A model generated the notes under the pieces. It searched no databases. It had not been told where the DNA came from and saw nothing but the letters and a program-made list of their open reading frames with translations. The position numbers were made by a program, and so were the translations under genes. Positions 17,588 through 32,000 of a DNA stretch of 32,000 nt are shown one piece after another. The DNA is from Candidatus Saccharimonadota bacterium (GTDB lineage Archaea > Micrarchaeota > Micrarchaeia > Micrarchaeales > Micrarchaeaceae), in NCBI RefSeq assembly GCF_002214165.1, contig NZ_CP019964.1:90001-122000 (forward strand). Reading direction: 5' to 3'. Each line of letters starts with the position of its first letter. The first letter of the stretch is position 1.

Positions 17588-20479
17588 ATGAAGCATATAA
17601 ATGCAAAGAGAGTAGCCGCTGTCGCAGTCGGAACAGCGTTGTTAGGAATGGGATTAGCGTTTGCAGTTCCAGTATCCTTCCAAAGTGTGCCTATAGTGAG
17701 TTCAGCAGGGCAGCCAGTTGTGCAGATAGCACTTGGTTACAACGGAACTTACCCAGCAAGCATAACTGATGGAGTAGCAGCAGCAGACATTGCAGCCGCA
17801 ATAGGAAACCTGGCGTACACAACAACCCCAGTGACAGTAAATATAAATGCCTCACAGGCAAGGAGCGTACTGAAGCCAGTCGTAACATCAAGTGCATACA
17901 AGCTTACAGACCAGCAGGTATGGCTTAATGAGTCAAGCTCTGCATACGTAAGCGGAAGTTATTCATTTGGTGCATTGATAGGATCAGTATTCAACAGAGG
18001 AATAAAGCTTAACACACTTTCAGCAACAAAGACAGTAGGAACAGTCGATGCATATCCAACTACATACAACCTTACAGCATCACCTACAGCAAGCCCTTAC
18101 ACAGCAACAGGATTCGTACCTGTATCAACTTCTGTATCAGCATCAACAAATGGAGGTGGAGTGTCATTCTCATCATTCCTTAATGGAACAGATGCGAACA
18201 TAATGAGAGTTACAAGCACAAACCTTCCTTCACTTTTGAGCAATTATGGAGCAAATGGAGAGAACGAGTACCTATGGCTTACAGGATTCCCTGTATATGA
18301 CCAGGCAAACAGCAGCTTTGCACTTGTAAATGCAGGAGGTGCATACCAGATAAACTTCAACAAGCCTATACCTGCGTACACATCAAGCAATTCAATAAAC
18401 CATGCATCAATTATGTTCTTGGGAAAGAACTGGACAATAGCAAACTACACACTCCCTTCAGGAACTGTATCCTCAAGCACATACACAACAGGAGGAAAGC
18501 TTGAACTGGCATCTGCAGTATCACCTATAACGACACTGTACCTTGACCACTTCTTGAATTCAACACCTTTTGGAGTAGAACTATCAGGATTTACAGAACC
18601 TAACAGCTCAGGAATATCACAGCCTATTTACCATGTATTCTACAATGGAACACTGGTAAACTCAACAACAATAAAGATAGGAACAACAAAGCTGTTCAAC
18701 GTAAGCGGCCACAAGATATATGTGTATGTAAAGAGTGCAGCAGCTGACGTTTTCGAAAGCGCAAGCTATGCAAAGACACAGCTTTACACAAACGTATACA
18801 ACATAACTGATGGTGCACAATTGAACAAGACAAGCGCTCCTGGATGGTACACAGACATATTGTGGACAAATTCATCAACTAGCGGAACTCCTAATGAGCT
18901 TGAAGGAATAGTTGCATACAATTCAACACCTACAACATTGTACCCAGGCCAGTCATTCTCATTCATATCCGACCCTGCAATATGGAAGCTGGATTTTGAA
19001 GGGTCCTCATTGGCATCTGGAGACTATGACCATGTAACATCAACATTGACATCTGTGTCAAACATAAAGTACAGCAACAAGGGGGCTGCTGCTCTGGAAA
19101 CAAACATAACAGAGCCTGGACAGGAATTGTCAGTATCGAGCTCAATATCAAACGCATTCAGCTTTGATGGCCAGATCAACAGCACAGTAAACTACCTGTT
19201 GACACCATATGAGTTGAACGACACGGCCCACACAGCACCTGCAAACACAGCAGCAGAGGTTTCAATTTCAAGCCCTGGAAACTACATCTCAGCAACAAAT
19301 CCATTGAGCGTAGTGCTTACAGGATACCTTAGCTCAAGTGCAGTATCTCCAACATCCGCTTCAGTAACTTTCAATTCAGTTAGCGGAAATGTGATAGCGC
19401 CATTGGACTTCTATAACCTTACAAGCATAGAGCCACAGAGAGCAATACCTGGAATGGAAATAACTGCGATGGCAGGAAGCAACACAATAGGTGTATTGGC
19501 TCCAATCCCAACAGCACAAATATTGCTGACACCAGTTTCCGGAAGCTCAGTATATGGACTTGGATCTGCAGGAAGTGTCACATACAGCCAGCAGAACGGC
19601 CAGCCAACAACAACCTTTGCATTGAGCGGATCGCAGGACAGCAACACAATGCATGGCACACAGACAGCATACTACACATACACAATGAACGAGTATGATG
19701 TCCCAAGCAGCACAAACTACAATGACAGCTTGTCATATGCAATACTGAACTCGTCTGCAGGCGCAGATGCAACACCTCTGTTCCAGCTGAATTATTCATC
19801 ATCTGCAACAGGGTACTCACACAACAACATGACCTATCTGTCTTCACAGAAAAACAGTGTAAAAGCACCTGCCGGATTTGTGACTGAAAGAGGGTCAAAG
19901 GTTGCATCAATCGCTCCAGAGAGTGCAGTGGTAGACATGGCAACATCTGTAGGAGAGCTTAACTTCTATGTAGCACCTACAAACGTAACAGCAGTGGTAA
20001 GCCATGCAAAGACCTATGGACCATACTCAATAGGGGAAGCAACAAACATACCTAACGTAACAATAGCAAACGTCAGCGCAAAGATATCCGTGAGCAATGC
20101 AAACTACACAATATCAGGAATAAGCAACCTGAGCTCTGCAGTAACAACAACACCATCAGTAGCAGATGTGCCTACAAACATAGAGAACATGACAATGCCT
20201 GGAAGCCCATCAGGATTGGTGATATTGGATACACAGGCTGCACCTACAAGCTCCTTGATACTGGTAGGAAGCGGATATGTAAACACATTGAGTGCACAGT
20301 TGCAGAAGGCTTACAACATAAGCGTAACTCCAACAAGCGCACCTATAGTGAAGGCATACCCAAGCTCTGCAACAGTGGGAGGACCTAGGATATTGGTAGC
20401 TGGATACAATGCAAGCCAGACAATGTCTGCAGCAAAGACCTTCATAGAAGATCTTTACGCAAATGCAGCAAAGTCCTGA
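17588..20479 (+). CDS. Major surface (S-layer-like) glycoprotein
   Basis: 963 aa with an N-terminal signal/anchor (VAAVAVGTALLGMGLAFAVP). Composition is S/T/N/A/G-rich and Cys-free, with few charged residues. I counted about 33 N-x-S/T sequons by hand. There is a strong AT-rich promoter region and a T-tract terminator. I recognise no catalytic motifs. Confidence 0.75.
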   Translation: MKHINAKRVAAVAVGTALLGMGLAFAVPVSFQSVPIVSSAGQPVVQIALGYNGTYPASITDGVAAADIAAAIGNLAYTTTPVTVNINASQARSVLKPVVTSSAYKLTDQQVWLNESSSAYVSGSYSFGALIGSVFNRGIKLNTLSATKTVGTVDAYPTTYNLTASPTASPYTATGFVPVSTSVSASTNGGGVSFSSFLNGTDANIMRVTSTNLPSLLSNYGANGENEYLWLTGFPVYDQANSSFALVNAGGAYQINFNKPIPAYTSSNSINHASIMFLGKNWTIANYTLPSGTVSSSTYTTGGKLELASAVSPITTLYLDHFLNSTPFGVELSGFTEPNSSGISQPIYHVFYNGTLVNSTTIKIGTTKLFNVSGHKIYVYVKSAAADVFESASYAKTQLYTNVYNITDGAQLNKTSAPGWYTDILWTNSSTSGTPNELEGIVAYNSTPTTLYPGQSFSFISDPAIWKLDFEGSSLASGDYDHVTSTLTSVSNIKYSNKGAAALETNITEPGQELSVSSSISNAFSFDGQINSTVNYLLTPYELNDTAHTAPANTAAEVSISSPGNYISATNPLSVVLTGYLSSSAVSPTSASVTFNSVSGNVIAPLDFYNLTSIEPQRAIPGMEITAMAGSNTIGVLAPIPTAQILLTPVSGSSVYGLGSAGSVTYSQQNGQPTTTFALSGSQDSNTMHGTQTAYYTYTMNEYDVPSSTNYNDSLSYAILNSSAGADATPLFQLNYSSSATGYSHNNMTYLSSQKNSVKAPAGFVTERGSKVASIAPESAVVDMATSVGELNFYVAPTNVTAVVSHAKTYGPYSIGEATNIPNVTIANVSAKISVSNANYTISGISNLSSAVTTTPSVADVPTNIENMTMPGSPSGLVILDTQAAPTSSLILVGSGYVNTLSAQLQKAYNISVTPTSAPIVKAYPSSATVGGPRILVAGYNASQTMSAAKTFIEDLYANAAKS

Positions 20480-25357: not shown

Positions 25358-27421
25358 TCAGTTTAATGCGCTTCCTGCATAACACTTGTTACCTTGAGCA
25401 GAAGCTCCATTAACATAAAGTATGTTACCGTATAATCCTTTATAAACTATGGAGTTACCCGTGGAATTTAGGACTATTACTGGGCTACCTGTCCCTGCAA
25501 GATAACTCAAGCAATGCGTATAGCTTACCCCATCAATTGAGCAGGCTCCTTTGTTCAATCCAACAAGAGTAAAAGTCTTATTTACAAAATCCGATTTTAT
25601 CGAATTTGCACATTCTGATTCTAGTAATGCTGATTTATTTAATGCAATATATGCAGTATGTGTATTGTTCAGCATTGAACTAAACGAATAAAATGGAAGG
25701 AAGCTATTTGCACTCGCCGCGACCGCATAAGTTGCATAAGAGTAAATTAGAACTATTACGAATAGCACTATGAATATGGCTGCCCATGTGTTCCTTACTA
25801 CCTTGTTAACTTTTATCTTCTTGCTCCTGCTTAGCTTGAAGTAAGTAAAGTAATATATTATGAACAGCACTATTATGCCAATTATAAATGACAGTAACAT
25901 TGCGTAATACGGAGCAGAGCTCTCCTTTGAGGAAAGAGATGTGCTATATCCGCTTTCAAAAGGCACAATGAAAAATGAATCTAAGGATTTCACAAAGCTT
26001 GGACCGTTGAAGTAAGATCCATAAACCCTAGTTTGGTTGTAGACACTTTGCATACTGGCGTTTAATGCAATAAGTTGGCTTTCATTTAATCTATTGCTGA
26101 ATTGCTGGTCAAGCATCTCCTGCTGCAATGCCAAATTCACAAGCTTTGGTGGAGGGTCTAAGTAATTAAGCTCTTTTGATACTACGAGGCCTGTAGTATT
26201 TATGGATTTGTTGTAAACAGGGTTATAGGTGCTTATGACTTTACTGTATACTAAAGTATTGTTGTTAAGGCTTGCATTTATTTCATTTCCTGCTGCAGTC
26301 AAATTCTGGTTTATTCCATGGCCCAATACATAGGAGTAAACAGTTTTTAATGTTGACAAGGAGCTGCTAAGGGAAGAGTTACTGAATTTTGAAAGCAACA
26401 ATTCAGATTCATTTACACTTTTATTATAAGCCCCACTTGTAGAATTAATCAGGCTGTTAAATCTTCCTGTTTCCTCCTTAATTACGACAGGTTCAACATA
26501 GGAACTTGCAAGTTCCGTCATATTCGAGACATAAGAGTTCAAATTGGAACCTGATACTGGAAGCATGCTCAAGGACTGCAATGTGGAATTTATATTATTA
26601 AGGTAACTGAAGTTAAATTGAGGTGTCGAAGTGCAAAGGCCCATAGAAAGGCAGTAATAAGGTGCCGTAGCTGAAAGTGTACATAGATTAAGTTCTGAAT
26701 TTGGAATGTCTGATGGAAGAGGGAAAAGTGCACTCTGGGGAAGTTTTGCGGATAGCTCAGATATTTGTGAAATGTTCGATCTTACCATATCTATATTGGT
26801 ATTGAAATTTGTGTGGTTAAGGCTGTCTAATAATTGGACAACATTAGTATAACTATTATTCAAAGCAGTAGTCTGATCTGAAAATGTGAATATGGCAGTA
26901 CTCAATATCCCTCCCATACCTCCGGTAGCTACGTAGTCTGCTGCGCATCTAGGGACGGTCTCACAGGAATACCCCCCATTTGCAACTGTAAATGTATATT
27001 CATTTAAACCAGTAGAGACCTTGCAGCTGTTTATTGCAGGTGCTGAATAAGATTCATATTCCGAAATATCATTTTTCATTGAATTTATGACTGAACTGTT
27101 TGGATAATAAAGGTCTATAAGAATAGGCGTAATTATTGCCTTGGCTGTTGTATTATTCAGTATAAAAGAGTAATGAGAGTCTGTGACATTCAGCAGAATA
27201 TGTTCAGAAGGTGTGACATTCATGATTATATATCTGCCATTATCGAATTCGAAAGAAACAAATGTGGAACTCTTTATTGTGGAATTTGGTATATAAGTTG
27301 ACAAATAACTGCTCAATGACGCATTAATTGAAACAGGTGTTACAGAAGCGGCATAAGAAGAGCTCATCCCGATTAAAGACAATGAGATAACAGCCAATAA
27401 TAGTATCCTTAAATAAGACAT
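25358..27421 (-). CDS. Large secreted/membrane glycoprotein: signal peptide, Cys-containing ectodomain, TM hairpin, second 4-Cys ectodomain
   Basis: 687 aa. Signal peptide MSYLRILLLAVISLSLIGMSSSYAAS, followed by an N/S/T-rich ectodomain of about 490 aa with many sequons and 8 Cys. Two TM helices (YYAMLLSFIIGIIVLFIIYYFTYF and TWAAIFIVLFVIVLIYSYATYAV) are separated by the basic loop KLSRSKKIKVNKVVRN. The C-terminal domain is about 125 aa. No family recognised. Confidence 0.65.
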   Translation of the reverse strand: MSYLRILLLAVISLSLIGMSSSYAASVTPVSINASLSSYLSTYIPNSTIKSSTFVSFEFDNGRYIIMNVTPSEHILLNVTDSHYSFILNNTTAKAIITPILIDLYYPNSSVINSMKNDISEYESYSAPAINSCKVSTGLNEYTFTVANGGYSCETVPRCAADYVATGGMGGILSTAIFTFSDQTTALNNSYTNVVQLLDSLNHTNFNTNIDMVRSNISQISELSAKLPQSALFPLPSDIPNSELNLCTLSATAPYYCLSMGLCTSTPQFNFSYLNNINSTLQSLSMLPVSGSNLNSYVSNMTELASSYVEPVVIKEETGRFNSLINSTSGAYNKSVNESELLLSKFSNSSLSSSLSTLKTVYSYVLGHGINQNLTAAGNEINASLNNNTLVYSKVISTYNPVYNKSINTTGLVVSKELNYLDPPPKLVNLALQQEMLDQQFSNRLNESQLIALNASMQSVYNQTRVYGSYFNGPSFVKSLDSFFIVPFESGYSTSLSSKESSAPYYAMLLSFIIGIIVLFIIYYFTYFKLSRSKKIKVNKVVRNTWAAIFIVLFVIVLIYSYATYAVAASANSFLPFYSFSSMLNNTHTAYIALNKSALLESECANSIKSDFVNKTFTLVGLNKGACSIDGVSYTHCLSYLAGTGSPVIVLNSTGNSIVYKGLYGNILYVNGASAQGNKCYAGSALN

Positions 27422-27567: not shown

Positions 27568-27894
27568 ATGATTGGAGAAGATTTTAAGGAAGAAGGTTCA
27601 CTTTCGCTGAATGAGGTATACGATATATTATCAAAGCGAAAAGAAGAATCAGAGCTTTCATACGAACAAAAGATGACATTCGAATATGCAGAGAAATTTC
27701 AGATTCCCTCAGCAAAATTCAAAAAGATAAAAAGCGATTTGGAGGCTATGGAACTTAATAACAACCTTATAAACAAACTATTGGAGTTGAATCCAAAAAG
27801 CCCAGAAGTGATAAAATATGCGGCAGCGAGTAACCGTGTCACTTTAGACGAAGAACAAATTAATAAAATACTCTCCGAATTCAAGAGCGTGTAA
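27568..27894 (+). CDS. rpoF: DNA-directed RNA polymerase subunit F (Rpo4)
   Basis: 108 aa. LSLNEVYDILSKRKEE...LSYEQKMTFEYAEKF...LNPKSPEVIKY fits the Rpo4/RpoF pattern. It is followed by DUF655, the conserved archaeal neighbourhood. Confidence 0.8.
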   Translation: MIGEDFKEEGSLSLNEVYDILSKRKEESELSYEQKMTFEYAEKFQIPSAKFKKIKSDLEAMELNNNLINKLLELNPKSPEVIKYAAASNRVTLDEEQINKILSEFKSV

Positions 27895-27934: not shown

Positions 27935-28516
27935 ATGGAAATTCAAGAAAAACGTGAGGATTATGCAGTTGTCATTGACTACATGCCCACTGGGAAGTCT
28001 TTTTCTACAAGAGCTGATCCAACATTGCAGTTAGTTGGTACTGAAAGATTTACATTATTAGAAGCAAAGCCTAAGCCAAACACATCATTTTCTATAGGTG
28101 AAAAGGTTTACATAGGAAAGAACGAGAGAGATAAAATAGAAATTATAAAATCTAGAATCTCCTATGATGAATTAACGCAGACCGCAAAAGGAAATCTCGT
28201 TGAGGCATTAGATAAGCTCGTAAAAGAGAATGAACAAAGATATGTTGACTTCTTTAACAATGCAAAACCACTTAATATAAGGCAGCATTCTTTGGAACTG
28301 CTTCCAGGAATAGGCAAAAAGCACCTTCAAGCGATACTTAAAGAAAGGACCGTAAAGAAGTTTGAAAGTTTTGAAGATATAAGCAATAGAATAGAGCTTC
28401 TGCAGGATCCATCCAAACTGATAGTTGAAAGGATACTTGAGGAATTGAAAGGAAACGAAAGGTTCTACCTATTTACAAAGCCTTTTGTAAAAAGGACGGA
28501 ACAATTCGGAAGATAA
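27935..28516 (+). CDS. DUF655 (COG1491) putative RNA-binding protein, OB-like + HhH
   Basis: The N-terminal EDYAVVIDYMPTGKS signature and the C-terminal helix-hairpin-helix LELLPGIGKKHLQAILKER are typical of DUF655 downstream of rpoF. Confidence 0.8.
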   Translation: MEIQEKREDYAVVIDYMPTGKSFSTRADPTLQLVGTERFTLLEAKPKPNTSFSIGEKVYIGKNERDKIEIIKSRISYDELTQTAKGNLVEALDKLVKENEQRYVDFFNNAKPLNIRQHSLELLPGIGKKHLQAILKERTVKKFESFEDISNRIELLQDPSKLIVERILEELKGNERFYLFTKPFVKRTEQFGR

Positions 28517-28526
28517 ATTATCTTCT

Positions 28527-28811
28527 TCATATTTTTTCTAAATGCACTACAGGAACTACCAGCTTCCTTGTTGCATTCATTATCCTAACTCTTACAACAT
28601 ATGCAGAGCCTCTTTTCTCTATAACTTCACCTATCCTGCCTTTATAACGGGGGTGTGGTGAGTCTCTATAATTGCTTTTAGGAACTATAGCTACCTTGTC
28701 TCCTATTTCAAAGGTCTTTATCTTATCAGCAATCGACAGTGTAGATAATTTGTGATGCCTTACCAGATTTCTTGTTTTTCCATGAAACTGTCCTCCAGAT
28801 CTTTTTGTCAT
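28527..28811 (-). CDS. rpl21e: 50S ribosomal protein L21e
   Basis: MTKRSGGQFHGKTRNL...FEIGDKVAIVPKSNYRDSPHPRYKGRIGEVIEKRGSAYVVRV...VVPVVHLEKI matches the L21e SH3-like consensus. Confidence 0.9.
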   Translation of the reverse strand: MTKRSGGQFHGKTRNLVRHHKLSTLSIADKIKTFEIGDKVAIVPKSNYRDSPHPRYKGRIGEVIEKRGSAYVVRVRIMNATRKLVVPVVHLEKI

Positions 28812-28909: not shown

Positions 28910-29016
28910 CATGGATTTCCCTTTTAAAACGCTTAGGGTATTGCACTCATTAGAAAAGCCTAATTTACCAAAATGTATTTATGCCTTTAAACCGTAATAT
29001 TTAAATAGGTGGAGAT

Positions 29017-29367
29017 ATGCCGAAGAAAATTGAATCAACTGATTTAATATTACCTGATTTACCTCATAAAAAGAATGTGGAGCTAAAGCCTACTTACAAA
29101 GTGGTTAATATAGTAGCAAGTGCCGATTTAAATACCGACCTTGATTTATATGGATTGGCAAAGCTTTCATATGATATAGATTACGAGCCAGAGCAGTTCC
29201 CAGGTGCAATATTAAAGATACGCGATCCAAAGTCAGCACTTCTTCTATTCAAAAACGGAAAAGTTATCTGCACAGGAGCAAGGACGGAAGATGAAGTCCG
29301 CAGGTCCATAATGCAAGCAGTTGACCTTGTCAAGAAATACCTCAAGCAGTATGGAGGAAAAGAATGA
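29017..29367 (+). CDS. Single-repeat TATA-binding-protein (TBP) domain protein
   Basis: 116 aa. Residues about 27-110 (YKVVNIVASADLNTDLDLYGLAKLSYDIDYEPEQFPGAILKIRDPKSALLLFKNGKVICTGARTEDEVRRSIMQAVDLVKKY) align with one TBP repeat (NIVAS.DL...LDL, EYEPEQFPG, LLFsSGKivCTGAks.e). The SD-like ggtgga lies just upstream. No second repeat is present. Confidence 0.8.
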   Translation: MPKKIESTDLILPDLPHKKNVELKPTYKVVNIVASADLNTDLDLYGLAKLSYDIDYEPEQFPGAILKIRDPKSALLLFKNGKVICTGARTEDEVRRSIMQAVDLVKKYLKQYGGKE

Positions 29368-29480
29368 AGCCTCCAATTAGCTGTACATAGGAACTTGATT
29401 TAGAATTTTTAACTTTCTGTATTTTAAAGCCCACTAACAATAATTAAATAGTTTTCCAATAAAATTTATCATAATATTGT

Positions 29481-29553
29481 GCGATTGTAGTCTAGCCTGG
29501 TAGGACATCGCCTTGCCAAGGCGGTAACTCGGGTTCAAATCCCGGCAGTCGCA
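29481..29553 (+). tRNA. tRNA-Gly (anticodon GCC), no intron, no encoded CCA
   Basis: Folded by hand. Acceptor GCGATTG/CAGTCGC (one G-U pair) plus discriminator A, and D arm GTCT-AGCCTGGTA-GGAC. Anticodon stem TCGCC/GGCGG with loop TTGCCAA. T arm TCGGG-TTCAAAT-CCCGG. Confidence 0.9.
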
Positions 29554-29622
29554 TTGCACTACTCCTACAATATTAAACGAATAAATACTATTTTTAATTT
29601 ATCTTATTCAATATTTGATCAG

Positions 29623-29949
29623 GTGGGCTTGTTGCAAAATAAAATTGTGTTGGCTACTATAGACGAAGACGGAAATTTGACAGGAGTGGGGAGAGCTCAA
29701 AGAGTGGCAATCATTCATATTAAGGACGGCAAAGTTGAAAACAGCGAGGAGATAGATGTAAAGTGGGGTGAAGCACACGAGATGGAGCAGGAGGGAGTGC
29801 ACCATGCAAGCATTGCCAAGTTTATTATAGCCTATAAAGTAAATGAAGTAATGGCAGGAGGTGCAGGTCCTGGCATGCAGATGATGTTAGAAAAGTTAGG
29901 ACTGACCGTAAAAATAGAAAGCGGCAATTATAAAAGCTTTATAAGATAA
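29623..29949 (+). CDS. NifB/NifX-family (dinitrogenase FeMo-cofactor biosynthesis-like, PF02579-type) small protein
   Basis: IVLATIDEDGNLTGVGRAQRVAIIHIKDGKV...VHHASIAKFIIAYKVNEVMAGGAGPGMQMMLEKLGLTV matches the family layout (beta1, G-R-A, ... GG.GpGa...L...Gi.v). The track start at 29554 abuts the tRNA and was rejected. The true start is the GTG at 29623 or the TTG at 29629/29632 after aggtgg. Confidence 0.7.
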   Translation: MGLLQNKIVLATIDEDGNLTGVGRAQRVAIIHIKDGKVENSEEIDVKWGEAHEMEQEGVHHASIAKFIIAYKVNEVMAGGAGPGMQMMLEKLGLTVKIESGNYKSFIR

Positions 29950-30110
29950 GGCAAAAGCAACCTTATGATTTCATGCAAATATTCAAATACCGTTTGATAA
30001 GAATAAACGTAAAAAGAATTAAATATAATAAACATTAAAGAGAATAATCAGTAATAACATAAATAGAAAATATTGATATAATGTACATTACTAAATCTTA
30101 TATAATCAAT

Positions 30111-32000
30111 ATGGCAGCACTAAGCCAGTCCAGACTATTGAAAACCATCATTGCAGTGGTGTTGTTTTCTTCAATTATTTATATAACATATTCAATTCAA
30201 ATTGGTCATACTGCATCTGTGGCAATAACCTCAAATAACTTTAATCTATCTAATCTGTCCAGCAGCTACAATATCAAAGATAATCTGGTCCTTCAGAATG
30301 AAAGTATAAATACCGTTGTCAATCCAAGAAATGGTACAAATACATCCAAATTAATAGCAGATCCAACTTTCTCTCCTCCTGGTTGCTTCAAATCCTATGG
30401 TGGTATCAGCTACTGGTACTGTTATGTGGAGATGAATGTATCAAGCAATTATGACGGGACAGCAACTTCATCTCCAGGAGGATCAACTAGCACCAGCGAT
30501 ACATATGAATTGTATGCAGGCAACTTCTATTATGTTAGTCCAAGCTATTCTGTAGATATATCAGAATCTCCTTCAACCGGCTATGAATTTGTAGACTGGA
30601 CTTGCAGTGGCAGTGGGTGCTACAGCGGGACTGCAACATCAAAGAGCTTAAGCGGATTAGGAAGTTCCATAGAAGAAACAGCCCACTTCAAATTGATACC
30701 AGAAACATTGACTATGAATGTCAACCCGTCAAATGATGGAAGTACATCACCAGGTGTAGGATCACATACATATGGTTACGGAACTACTGTTTCATTATCC
30801 GAAACACCTGCCACAGGCTATGAATTTGTAGACTGGACTTGCAATGGCAATGGTTGTTACTCAGGAACATCAACCAATCCAACAGTAACTCTTAAAAATA
30901 GCATAACAGAGACTGCCAACTTCAAGCTTATACCAGAAACATTGACTATGAATATGAACCCATCTTCAGGAGGTAGTATATCACCTTCAGTTGGAAACTA
31001 CATTTATAACTACGGAACTGTTATCACAATAACAGAATCTCCTTCAACCGGATATGAATTTACGGGCTGGACAGGTAGTGGAAGCGGCAGTTATACAGGA
31101 AACAAGTCTGTATCAAGCGTAACAATGGACAGTGCAATAACAGAGACTGCCAACTTCAAGCTTATTCCAGAAACGTTGACTATGAATGTCAATCCATCTT
31201 CAGGAGGTACAACTTCGCCTTCTGTTGGAACTTACACATATAACTATGGAACTTCCATTACAATATCTGAGACTCCAAATCCCGGCTACACATTTTATGA
31301 TTGGACTTGCGGTGGGTACGACTGCTACAGCGGCACATCACAATCTGCCACAATAAAATCCAATAATTCAATATCTGAAACAGCAAATTATGAAGTCAAT
31401 CTAACAATGGAGGTTTCTCCAACTGGAACTGGGAGCACCACCCCATCAATAGGTATCCATCCATATGCTTATGGAACATCAGTACTGATATCCGAAACAC
31501 CTGCAAAATATTATGAATTTGTAAAATGGATAGGATCGACAAATAGCAGTTATTCAGGGAATGCAACCTCCACTTATATTACTTTAAACTATCCAACGAC
31601 AGAGGAGGCGGTGTTCAAGGTAATACCTTTGGTGCTCTATACACCTTCAGTAAGTGCAAGTTCTATAGAAGATGGCCAATCTGAGACGATAACAGAAAAA
31701 TTATCTGGTGGGCTTCCAAACTATACCTATATAGCAAATATCTACTGGTACAATACGTCGGATAATGCTTATGTTAAGGTAAATTCTACTAAAATTATAA
31801 CTTCTAACAGTAGCTCTTCTGTAACATTCTATTCAGAGTACTATCCTTTAGGCAAATATAAGGTCAATTATACAGTAACCGATTCGGAATCTCCCCCAGT
31901 TACTGAAATTTCCGGCTCAAATTATTTTGAAGTAACCTTGCCAATGAGTGTAGAAATTAAACCAGAATATGCTTCCTATGACGCAGGTGAAAGTATTACG
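30111..32000 (+). CDS. Large secreted repeat protein (N-terminal anchor, 5 InlB-B-repeat-like modules, then PKD-like Ig domains); runs off the right edge
   Basis: Absent from the ORF track because it is open at the edge. I translated 630 codons with no stop from the ATG at 30111; an in-frame ATG at 30081 is also possible. It has an N-terminal hydrophobic segment (LLKTIIAVVLFSSIIYITY). Five modules of about 78 aa follow the pattern NPS.GG..SP.vG.Y.Y.YGT.i.i.E.P..GYEF..WT(C/G).G.(C/S)Y.G......v....itEtAnFk. After these come D.GQSETIT...GGLPNYTY...Y.VNYTVTDSE (PKD-like). Confidence 0.8.
   Translation, partial: MAALSQSRLLKTIIAVVLFSSIIYITYSIQIGHTASVAITSNNFNLSNLSSSYNIKDNLVLQNESINTVVNPRNGTNTSKLIADPTFSPPGCFKSYGGISYWYCYVEMNVSSNYDGTATSSPGGSTSTSDTYELYAGNFYYVSPSYSVDISESPSTGYEFVDWTCSGSGCYSGTATSKSLSGLGSSIEETAHFKLIPETLTMNVNPSNDGSTSPGVGSHTYGYGTTVSLSETPATGYEFVDWTCNGNGCYSGTSTNPTVTLKNSITETANFKLIPETLTMNMNPSSGGSISPSVGNYIYNYGTVITITESPSTGYEFTGWTGSGSGSYTGNKSVSSVTMDSAITETANFKLIPETLTMNVNPSSGGTTSPSVGTYTYNYGTSITISETPNPGYTFYDWTCGGYDCYSGTSQSATIKSNNSISETANYEVNLTMEVSPTGTGSTTPSIGIHPYAYGTSVLISETPAKYYEFVKWIGSTNSSYSGNATSTYITLNYPTTEEAVFKVIPLVLYTPSVSASSIEDGQSETITEKLSGGLPNYTYIANIYWYNTSDNAYVKVNSTKIITSNSSSSVTFYSEYYPLGKYKVNYTVTDSESPPVTEISGSNYFEVTLPMSVEIKPEYASYDAGESIT
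30460..31630 (+). repeat. Tandem array of about five 234-bp (78-codon) coding repeats
   Basis: The anchor ccagaaac(a/g)ttgactatgaat recurs at 30699, 30933 and 31167, an exact 234-bp period. 30909-30953 versus 31143-31187 differ at 2 of 45 nt. The outer units are more diverged. Confidence 0.85.

Follow-up and report, generated by a model that had tools for sequence, protein, structure and literature searches.

The TATA-binding protein, or TBP, counts as a universal two-repeat, pseudo-symmetric protein in Archaea and Eukarya. In its canonical archaeal form, two PF00352 repeats lie in one chain of ~180-195 amino acids (aa; M. jannaschii 2Z8U, S. acidocaldarius 1MP9, P. woesei 1AIS), the two halves being joined through strands S1/S1' and the H2 helices. 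The origin of TBP from a single-domain homodimer is a textbook hypothesis, although we know of no living example of such an ancestor. Here we describe a 116-aa protein with a single TBP repeat, which we call H1, encoded in a stretch of 32,000 nucleotides (nt) of the closed, 952,257 bp genome of Candidatus (Ca.) Mancarchaeum acidiphilum Mia14 (contig NZ_CP019964.1, positions 90,001 to 122,000; this whole stretch is referred to as the window). The protein encoded in the window is an exact match to ASI13487.1 / WP_088819654.1. H1 shares the repeat fold of canonical archaeal TBP, is 38-45% identical to either of its repeats, and has the same Phe, Asn and Thr contacts and EPEQ stirrup. Canonical TBP has two repeats per chain whereas H1 has one, so that a saddle must come from two chains. 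Two-repeat TBPs of other Micrarchaeota occupy the same genomic position as H1. We conclude that H1 is probably the TBP of this lineage in single-repeat form, working as a two-chain protein, either as H1:H1 or paired with a second single-repeat protein, H2, or both.

Single-domain TBP proteins of two kinds have been reported, both present alongside canonical TBP, in a survey that had the Micrarchaeota outside its coverage (Brindefalk et al. 2013, PMC3597702). TbpA of Halobacterium closely resembles the full-length TBPs found in its own species, is present together with canonical TBPs and is reportedly non-essential (PMC3597702). H1 and TbpA agree in having one TBP domain, free of any fused partner and clustering with genuine TBP repeats; unlike TbpA, H1 holds the canonical locus and is conserved over a large part of its phylum. 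The monopartite TBP-domain proteins of the Thermococcales (~91-97 aa, e.g. P. furiosus NP_578195; PMC3597702, Table 3) are highly divergent from TBP, form a separate cluster, have no known function and always occur with canonical TBP (PMC3597702). They resemble H1 as stand-alone proteins of ~100 aa with a predicted TBP-domain fold, but whereas they are divergent from TBP, H1 is 55-69% identical to Micrarchaeota TBP repeats. Split protein genes occur in DPANN archaea, for example Nanoarchaeum equitans, and H1 and H2 are similar to these in that two unlinked genes would jointly supply one usual polypeptide in a reduced genome. However, H1 and H2 look like duplicates of one half and not like the products of gene fission. 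In the literature searched we found no description of a half, split, monopartite or homodimeric TBP in Micrarchaeota or DPANN. Comparative papers on DPANN score TBP merely as present, and a large study of TBP evolution makes no mention of single-repeat archaeal TBPs. The H1 protein is already in databases, but its architecture, family-wide conservation, positional orthology and H2 partner are undescribed in the literature searched. As a single-repeat TBP, H1 appears to replace the canonical gene and not to stand beside it.

An initial annotation, made from the letters of the window alone, had described H1 as a stand-alone single-repeat TBP of 116 aa, and the open reading frame (ORF), the motifs it quoted and exactly one PF00352 repeat were all found. 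PF00352 matched a single stretch of H1 (aa 27-108) over profile positions 2-85 of 85, with an E value of 2.7e-25 and a score of 88.5 bits (cut-off 22.9). Of the NCBIfam full-length TBP models, all ten (10/10) matched H1 over a single half only, scoring 61-81 bits where the cut-offs are 181-347, and H1 lacks the two-repeat canonical architecture of the NCBIfam PRK00394 models. When H1 was compared with the PDB using phmmer, one segment aligned to both repeats of 2z8u, 1mp9 and 1ais (E 1e-34 to 5e-38), and 2z8u was the best of these matches (E 5e-38). No second TBP-like segment was found in any frame of the window, either by tblastn (E<=10) or with a TBP-repeat hidden Markov model (HMM) run on six-frame translations, in agreement with the earlier claim that the spacers hold no TBP-like coding and that the gene is not a frameshifted full-length one. 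H1 is monopartite in the sense that its one TBP domain has no other domain next to it, whether in the protein or in the flanking DNA. The proposed upstream spacer of 205 nt was confirmed and extends to the L21e gene, while the downstream gap to tRNA-Gly is, as claimed, too short for a second repeat but measures 112 nt and not 113. The N-terminal extension of 26 residues was also supported, with residues 1-31 predicted to be disordered (pLDDT below 50). A Thermoplasmata origin for this DNA did not hold, as the lineage is Micrarchaeota (DPANN). Mia14, a DPANN archaeon of this phylum, grows on a Thermoplasmata host (PMC5498576). The RefSeq name of H1 is 'hypothetical protein' (WP_088819654.1; also WP_203134431.1 of Ca. 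Micrarchaeum sp. A_DKE), because the single repeat stays under the cut-offs of the full-length TBP models.

We scanned species-representative genomes with peptide words such as PEQFPGAI and kept the best 80 loci. No two of these came from the same Micrarchaeota assembly, and the complete chromosome of Ca. Micrarchaeum sp. A_DKE was among the 80 sources. Each locus gave one high-scoring segment pair and an ORF of 94-135 aa that was 57-97% identical to the window protein (tblastn and ORF extraction), and the ORF was closed at both ends in 77/80. In a protein search the close orthologues P0001, P0002, P0033 and P0068 (115-121 aa, 83-98% identity) were recovered, and the remaining top matches among the best 120 were two-repeat Micrarchaeota TBPs. 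One orthologue, P0033, was present in 62 collection blocks from independent samples and was always 115 aa long. The TBP-repeat HMM detected no second repeat beside H1 in ~1 Mb of flanks in six-frame translations of all fetched loci, whereas the same HMM recovered both repeats at control loci with two-repeat TBPs. Comparison of the window with its nearest species (L001) gave a non-synonymous divergence (dN) of 0.020, a synonymous divergence (dS) of 1.04 and a ratio (omega) of 0.02; the median omega was 0.23 over 400 pairs with dS<1.5, and some species pairs had synonymous differences only. The approximate length of H1 is thus kept in at least 80 species under strong purifying selection, in keeping with a genuine stand-alone single-repeat TBP as described by the initial annotation, and not with a decaying gene. 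Several Micrarchaeota-type H1 contigs were deposited as Candidatus Acidoferrum sp. or Candidatus Marsarchaeota (L042 (DATJLP010000011.1), L017, L028, L032, L048, L060, L064, L071), probably through mis-binning or mislabelling.

The gene order in the window and in close relatives was S-layer protein, MoxR, SerRS, aRF1, two unknown genes, Rpo4, DUF655, L21e(-), H1(+). Among the 76 H1 loci with sufficient upstream sequence, L21e(-) was located within 600 nt upstream in 67, with a median spacer of 93 nt. The two-repeat Micrarchaeota TBPs P0010, P0005, P0028 (Anstonellales), P0012 and P0088 all adjoined a divergent L21e gene (5/5), with DUF655 beside L21e at every one of these loci and Rpo4 at 4/5. 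Since the L21e(-), TBP(+) context is shared, with Rpo4 and DUF655 nearby, H1 is the positional orthologue of canonical TBP. It is the canonical TBP gene cut to one repeat at its usual locus, and not an extra copy elsewhere. Nine H1-like single-repeat loci had no detectable L21e directly upstream (L020, L049, L054, L057, L059, L060, L064, L066, L079), of which L057, L064 and L066 form a distinct 100-aa subgroup. These L21e-less loci could be relocated copies or a further paralogue.

Two intercalating Phe residues, a central Asn and a Thr make up the DNA-contact set of TBP in established TBP-DNA structures. An alignment of 18 H1 proteins showed that N31, F61, F78, T86 and the stirrup YEPEQFPG are invariant, and the phmmer alignments placed the H1 contact residues at the matching positions of solved TBPs. 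The acidic stirrup E-P-E-Q/L is the TFB/TFIIB contact in TBP, and Y56-E-P-E-Q-F-P-G63 is invariant in both H1 and H2. By homology to the solved complexes, the invariant residues of H1 would kink and read the TATA box and contact transcription factor B (TFB). H2 likewise shows no variation at the corresponding F, T and stirrup positions, and almost none at the Asn. The AlphaFold model of H1 (18 family members) has a core at residues 34-113 with pLDDT ~83 and the order S1-H1-S2-S3-S4-S5-H2, and superposed on single TBP repeats with a root-mean-square deviation (rmsd) of ~1 A over 76 residues (Foldseek). With this model as query, Foldseek E values were ~1e-6 for TBPs and ~0.5 for OGG1 and RNase HIII, and H1 is not nearer to the TBP-like domains of RNase HIII or DNA glycosylases than to TBP. 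In the H1 monomer, strand S1 is short and of poor model quality (E34-37), whereas the model of P0005, a natural fused protein, has long S1 strands (E10-21 and E108-119) in a canonical two-repeat topology (mean pLDDT 74, single-sequence input). As modelled, this difference is consistent with an unpaired S1 edge in H1 that needs a partner. The N-terminal tail of the family has a median length of 14 aa and a net charge of ~+2.8, and we found no distinctive difference in tail charge between H1 and H2 and two-repeat TBPs.

An exhaustive search revealed several short single-stretch clusters among the TBP cluster representatives. One of these, P0283 (123 aa), is 52% identical to H1 and lies at a locus other than that of H1; it defines the family H2. 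A search with P0283 returned ~70 clusters of 93-148 aa, with one PF00352 repeat and a distinct, well-conserved core. The synteny of H2 is also conserved (members P0283, P0366, P0300 and P0319; loci L097-L120), the order being Nuo L/M/N, a GGR-like FAD oxidoreductase(-), H2(+), a GT4 glycosyltransferase(-), and then SRP54 or DXR; at the P0283 locus it is SRP54 that follows the glycosyltransferase(-). H1 and H2 are unlinked and ~51% identical, with the distinctive residues of H2 in helix H1, strand S4 and helix H2. Both families were present in the same assembly in two cases: JAJZAB010000001.1 (483,663 bp, FK5.bin71) has H2 at ~320 kb and H1 at ~477 kb (L026), and JAMCZM01 has H2 on contig 35 and H1 on contig 33 (L028), the latter being a near neighbour of Mancarchaeum H1 in the repeat tree. 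One further protein, P0235 (127 aa, on a 2,054 bp ENA contig), looks chimeric: its S1-H1 part is H2-like (IKIQNIVVSADLHAVIDLYALSKEVKAV), and after the stirrup it is nearly identical to group-B H1 proteins. P0235 could have arisen by genuine recombination, or the metagenome assembly could have joined two sequences at the YEPEQFPGAI region that they share.

The complete genome of Mia14 has been reported to encode two proteins in arCOG01764 (TBP) and one TFB (Golyshina 2017, PMC5498576, Suppl. Data 4). The most economical reading of this pair, and one that we infer with good confidence, is that it consists of H1 and H2. The second arCOG01764 protein is not in the window, is not named in the best 120 matches of three homologue searches, in which the profile search was swamped by two-repeat TBPs, and was absent among the members of the 26 clusters inspected. 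The texts and supplements of the Mia14 and A_DKE papers do not identify it and give only the count of two.

In the two-chain TBP that we propose, one H1 chain would provide half of a saddle, with its intercalating Phe pair, a central Asn and Thr, and an EPEQ stirrup. By pairing via their S1 strands and H2 helices, two chains would form the ten-stranded saddle that canonical TBP makes from covalently linked repeats. The partner could be a second H1 chain, giving a fully symmetric homodimer, or H2, giving a heterodimer with ~51% identical halves, like an ordinary archaeal TBP. The dimer would bind A/T-rich promoter boxes and recruit the single TFB. A symmetric TBP would be tolerable, as the direction of the promoter would come from the contact between TFB and the TFB recognition element (BRE). 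The orientation of the archaeal preinitiation complex depends on TFB-BRE (PMC7289017), and because this contact sets direction, a symmetric TBP is compatible with archaeal initiation. The existence of natural fused H1-H1 proteins (P0003-P0006) argues that an H1:H1 saddle is functional. Where H2 is present, H1:H2 is at least as likely as H1:H1, because H2 has been retained over the long term in genomes with H1, and the ~51% identity of H1 and H2 is about that usually seen between the repeats of an archaeal TBP. The suggestion of the initial annotation that H1 could homodimerise into a symmetric saddle therefore stands in part: a saddle dimer is the most plausible mode of action, given the S1 edge and P0003-P0006, but with H2 found the homodimer is not singled out. 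Dimerisation, the choice of partner, DNA binding, TFB binding and the lack of a two-repeat TBP in Mia14 are all inferred. Going further, we slightly favour a scenario in which a large Micrarchaeota clade including the cultured Mia14 and A_DKE has no two-repeat TBP and starts all its transcription with non-covalent H1:H1, H1:H2 or both, having returned to the homodimeric state proposed for ancestral TBP, which was followed by duplication of the half-gene and, in at least one sublineage, re-fusion to a new two-repeat TBP of almost perfect symmetry.

We considered whether H1 could instead be an accessory or regulatory half-TBP beside a canonical TBP encoded elsewhere, capping TBP/TFB, competing for TATA boxes or serving a subset of promoters. 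The models for such a role are Halobacterium TbpA and the single-domain proteins of Thermococcales, and all previously described single-domain TBP proteins do coexist with canonical TBP (Brindefalk et al. 2013, PMC3597702). However, H1 occupies the ancestral TBP locus in 67/76 cases, where the canonical Micrarchaeota TBPs are also found (5/5), no two-repeat TBP surfaced from any H1-bearing assembly, and the extra TBP-family gene in two such assemblies was another half, H2. All DNA-contact residues are kept, and the conservation of H1 is about that of a general factor. We therefore regard an accessory role as unlikely, while pairing with or antagonising a canonical TBP in Mia14, also raised by the initial annotation, is possible. 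Several observations do weigh against a two-chain general TBP. For the second arCOG01764 protein of Mia14, H2 is one candidate; a two-repeat TBP, either gained or kept at another locus, is the other, and would make H1 accessory. No two-repeat TBP was obtained from H1-bearing assemblies, but the scan with words such as PEQFPGAI is blind to TBPs that lack them. Expression data for H1 were not found in the literature searched. In addition, the clade uniting H1, H2 and the repeats of P0003-P0006 had a neighbour-joining bootstrap of only 37%.

Lone TBP-fold domains function in other protein families (PMC3597702), and the core of the AlphaFold monomer folds by itself, as would be expected if H1 were a monomeric nucleic-acid-binding module with a non-TBP role similar to the TBP-like domains of RNase HIII or DNA glycosylases. 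Such a role is nevertheless highly improbable. Both sequence and structure match genuine TBP repeats, at ~1 A rmsd, while RNase HIII and OGG reach only E ~0.5; the TBP-specific residues are invariant and the gene is at the TBP locus; the short S1 of the H1 model, against the long S1 of P0005, fits an edge needing a partner; and the lineage would be left without a general TBP. A half-TBP would also be seen if a full-length tbp gene had decayed to a pseudogene fragment or had been misassembled or misannotated, and most apparent single-domain TBPs in databases are in fact misannotated full-length genes (Brindefalk et al. 2013, PMC3597702). For H1 this was ruled out by the conservation data: stop and length are the same in independent assemblies made from many samples (P0033, 62 blocks), the architecture is common to at least 80 species with an omega of 0.02, the flanks are free of TBP sequence, and the Mia14 genome is closed.

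The single-repeat state could have arisen in more than one way. To ask whether an asymmetric TBP had been split into separate N and C genes, we used HMMs built from the N repeats and the C repeats of TBPs with clear asymmetry, and this origin was rejected. True N repeats scored +11.5 bits and true C repeats -13.0, whereas H1 scored +1.2 and H2 -1.4, so that neither was assigned to a repeat class. The repeat in the window scored +0.6 against a separation of ~+/-12 bits, which supports the earlier observation that features of both repeats are mixed in it. The H2 clade had 100% bootstrap in a neighbour-joining tree of repeats, and H2 grouped with H1 and not with one repeat class. H1 and H2 nest, with weak support, among two-repeat Micrarchaeota TBPs, which on sequence grounds suggests that the single-repeat state is derived and not a relic. 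Symmetry is unusually high in the two-repeat TBPs nearest to H1, with an N-to-C identity of 51-92% (first set, 116), whereas that of asymmetric TBPs is ~20-50% (wider set, 276). P0003-P0006 are two-repeat TBPs at the TBP locus; the identity between their two repeats is 83-90%, and it reaches 90% with the single-repeat H1 protein L091. The N and C repeats are 83-92% identical in P0017, P0100 and P0003-P0006 (e.g. locus L093 8001-8591). This high symmetry suggests that a half-gene was recently re-duplicated in tandem, or that gene conversion has acted between the repeats. In the simplest history, one repeat was lost at the TBP locus, the half-gene was then duplicated to give H1 and H2, and at least one branch then re-duplicated it in tandem to form a new two-repeat TBP; the symmetry could alternatively stem from gene conversion between repeats. 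TBP-family proteins with three or four repeats were also present: P0148 (272 aa, 3), P0149 (376 aa, 4), P0160 (702 aa, 4) and P0223 (329 aa, 4), of which P0149 is a eukaryote-type TBP core twice over. These may be assembly or gene-call duplications, or may be real.

If the two-chain proposal is correct, a clade with a single-repeat TBP gene would be a living example of the proposed ancestral form. The lineage offers co-cultured organisms, a natural paralogue pair in H1 and H2, and natural re-fused genes. Directional transcription from a symmetric saddle, the emergence of asymmetry after duplication, and the ease of switching between one-chain and two-chain forms could all be tested in it. There is also a consequence for annotation, in that automated surveys could score H1 genomes as lacking TBP, with essential-looking proteins named 'hypothetical protein'.

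The features of the H1 locus are listed in Table 1. Alignment of six orthologous upstream regions from several genera showed that columns A162, T163, T165, T167, T169, A170 and T171 of the A/T box are invariant. The initial annotation had noted an SD-like ggtgga upstream of H1, and the GGTG of this sequence was retained in 6/6 aligned regions; both the A/T box and GGTG are kept from Mancarchaeum to Micrarchaeum.

Table 1. Features of the H1 locus, in window coordinates
Feature	Position	Strand	Basis and remarks
Rpo4/RpoF	27568-27894	+	Pfam; conserved L21e companion
DUF655	27935-28516	+	Pfam; conserved L21e companion
Ribosomal protein L21e gene, divergent	28527..28811	-	Pfam PF01157, synteny; marks the ancestral TBP locus
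Candidate TATA element, A/T box ATGTATTTAT	28973..28982, 35-44 nt before ATG	+	Conserved; putative function
GGTG, Shine-Dalgarno-like	29008..29011, 6-9 nt before ATG	+	Invariant in 6/6 aligned upstream regions
H1 coding sequence, single-repeat TBP, 116 aa	29017..29367 including stop codon	+	ORF list, ATG start, Pfam TBP in one stretch
N-terminal extension, aa 1-26	29017..29094	+	Predicted disordered; length and sequence vary among orthologues
TBP repeat, aa 27-108	29095..29340	+	Pfam coordinates; holds N31, F61, F78, T86 and stirrup Y56-EPEQFPG-63
tRNA-Gly(GCC), downstream neighbour of H1	29480..29554	+	ARAGORN; no room left for a second repeat

The tRNA-Gly(GCC) gene follows H1 only in Mancarchaeum-like loci (L001 10496-10570 (+); L004 10423-10497 (-)), and is inverted in L004, a species at 83% identity. 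At 29554-29949 the window contains an ORF of 131 aa with a weak Nitro_FeMo-Co match, whose TTG start overlaps the last base of the tRNA. The true start of this ORF is probably further downstream, because its orthologue in L001 was called at 108 aa. In relatives, H1 is followed by a gene for a giant protein of ~2,600-2,700 aa with a weak Flg_new_2 match (L001 11275-19176), and in the window this gene apparently passes the end of the stretch (30000-32000). Upstream of H1, the window encodes a 963-aa S-layer protein (17588-20479) and a 687-aa Ser/Asn-rich protein without a Pfam match (25358-27421), and the region around H1 is probably rich in surface proteins.

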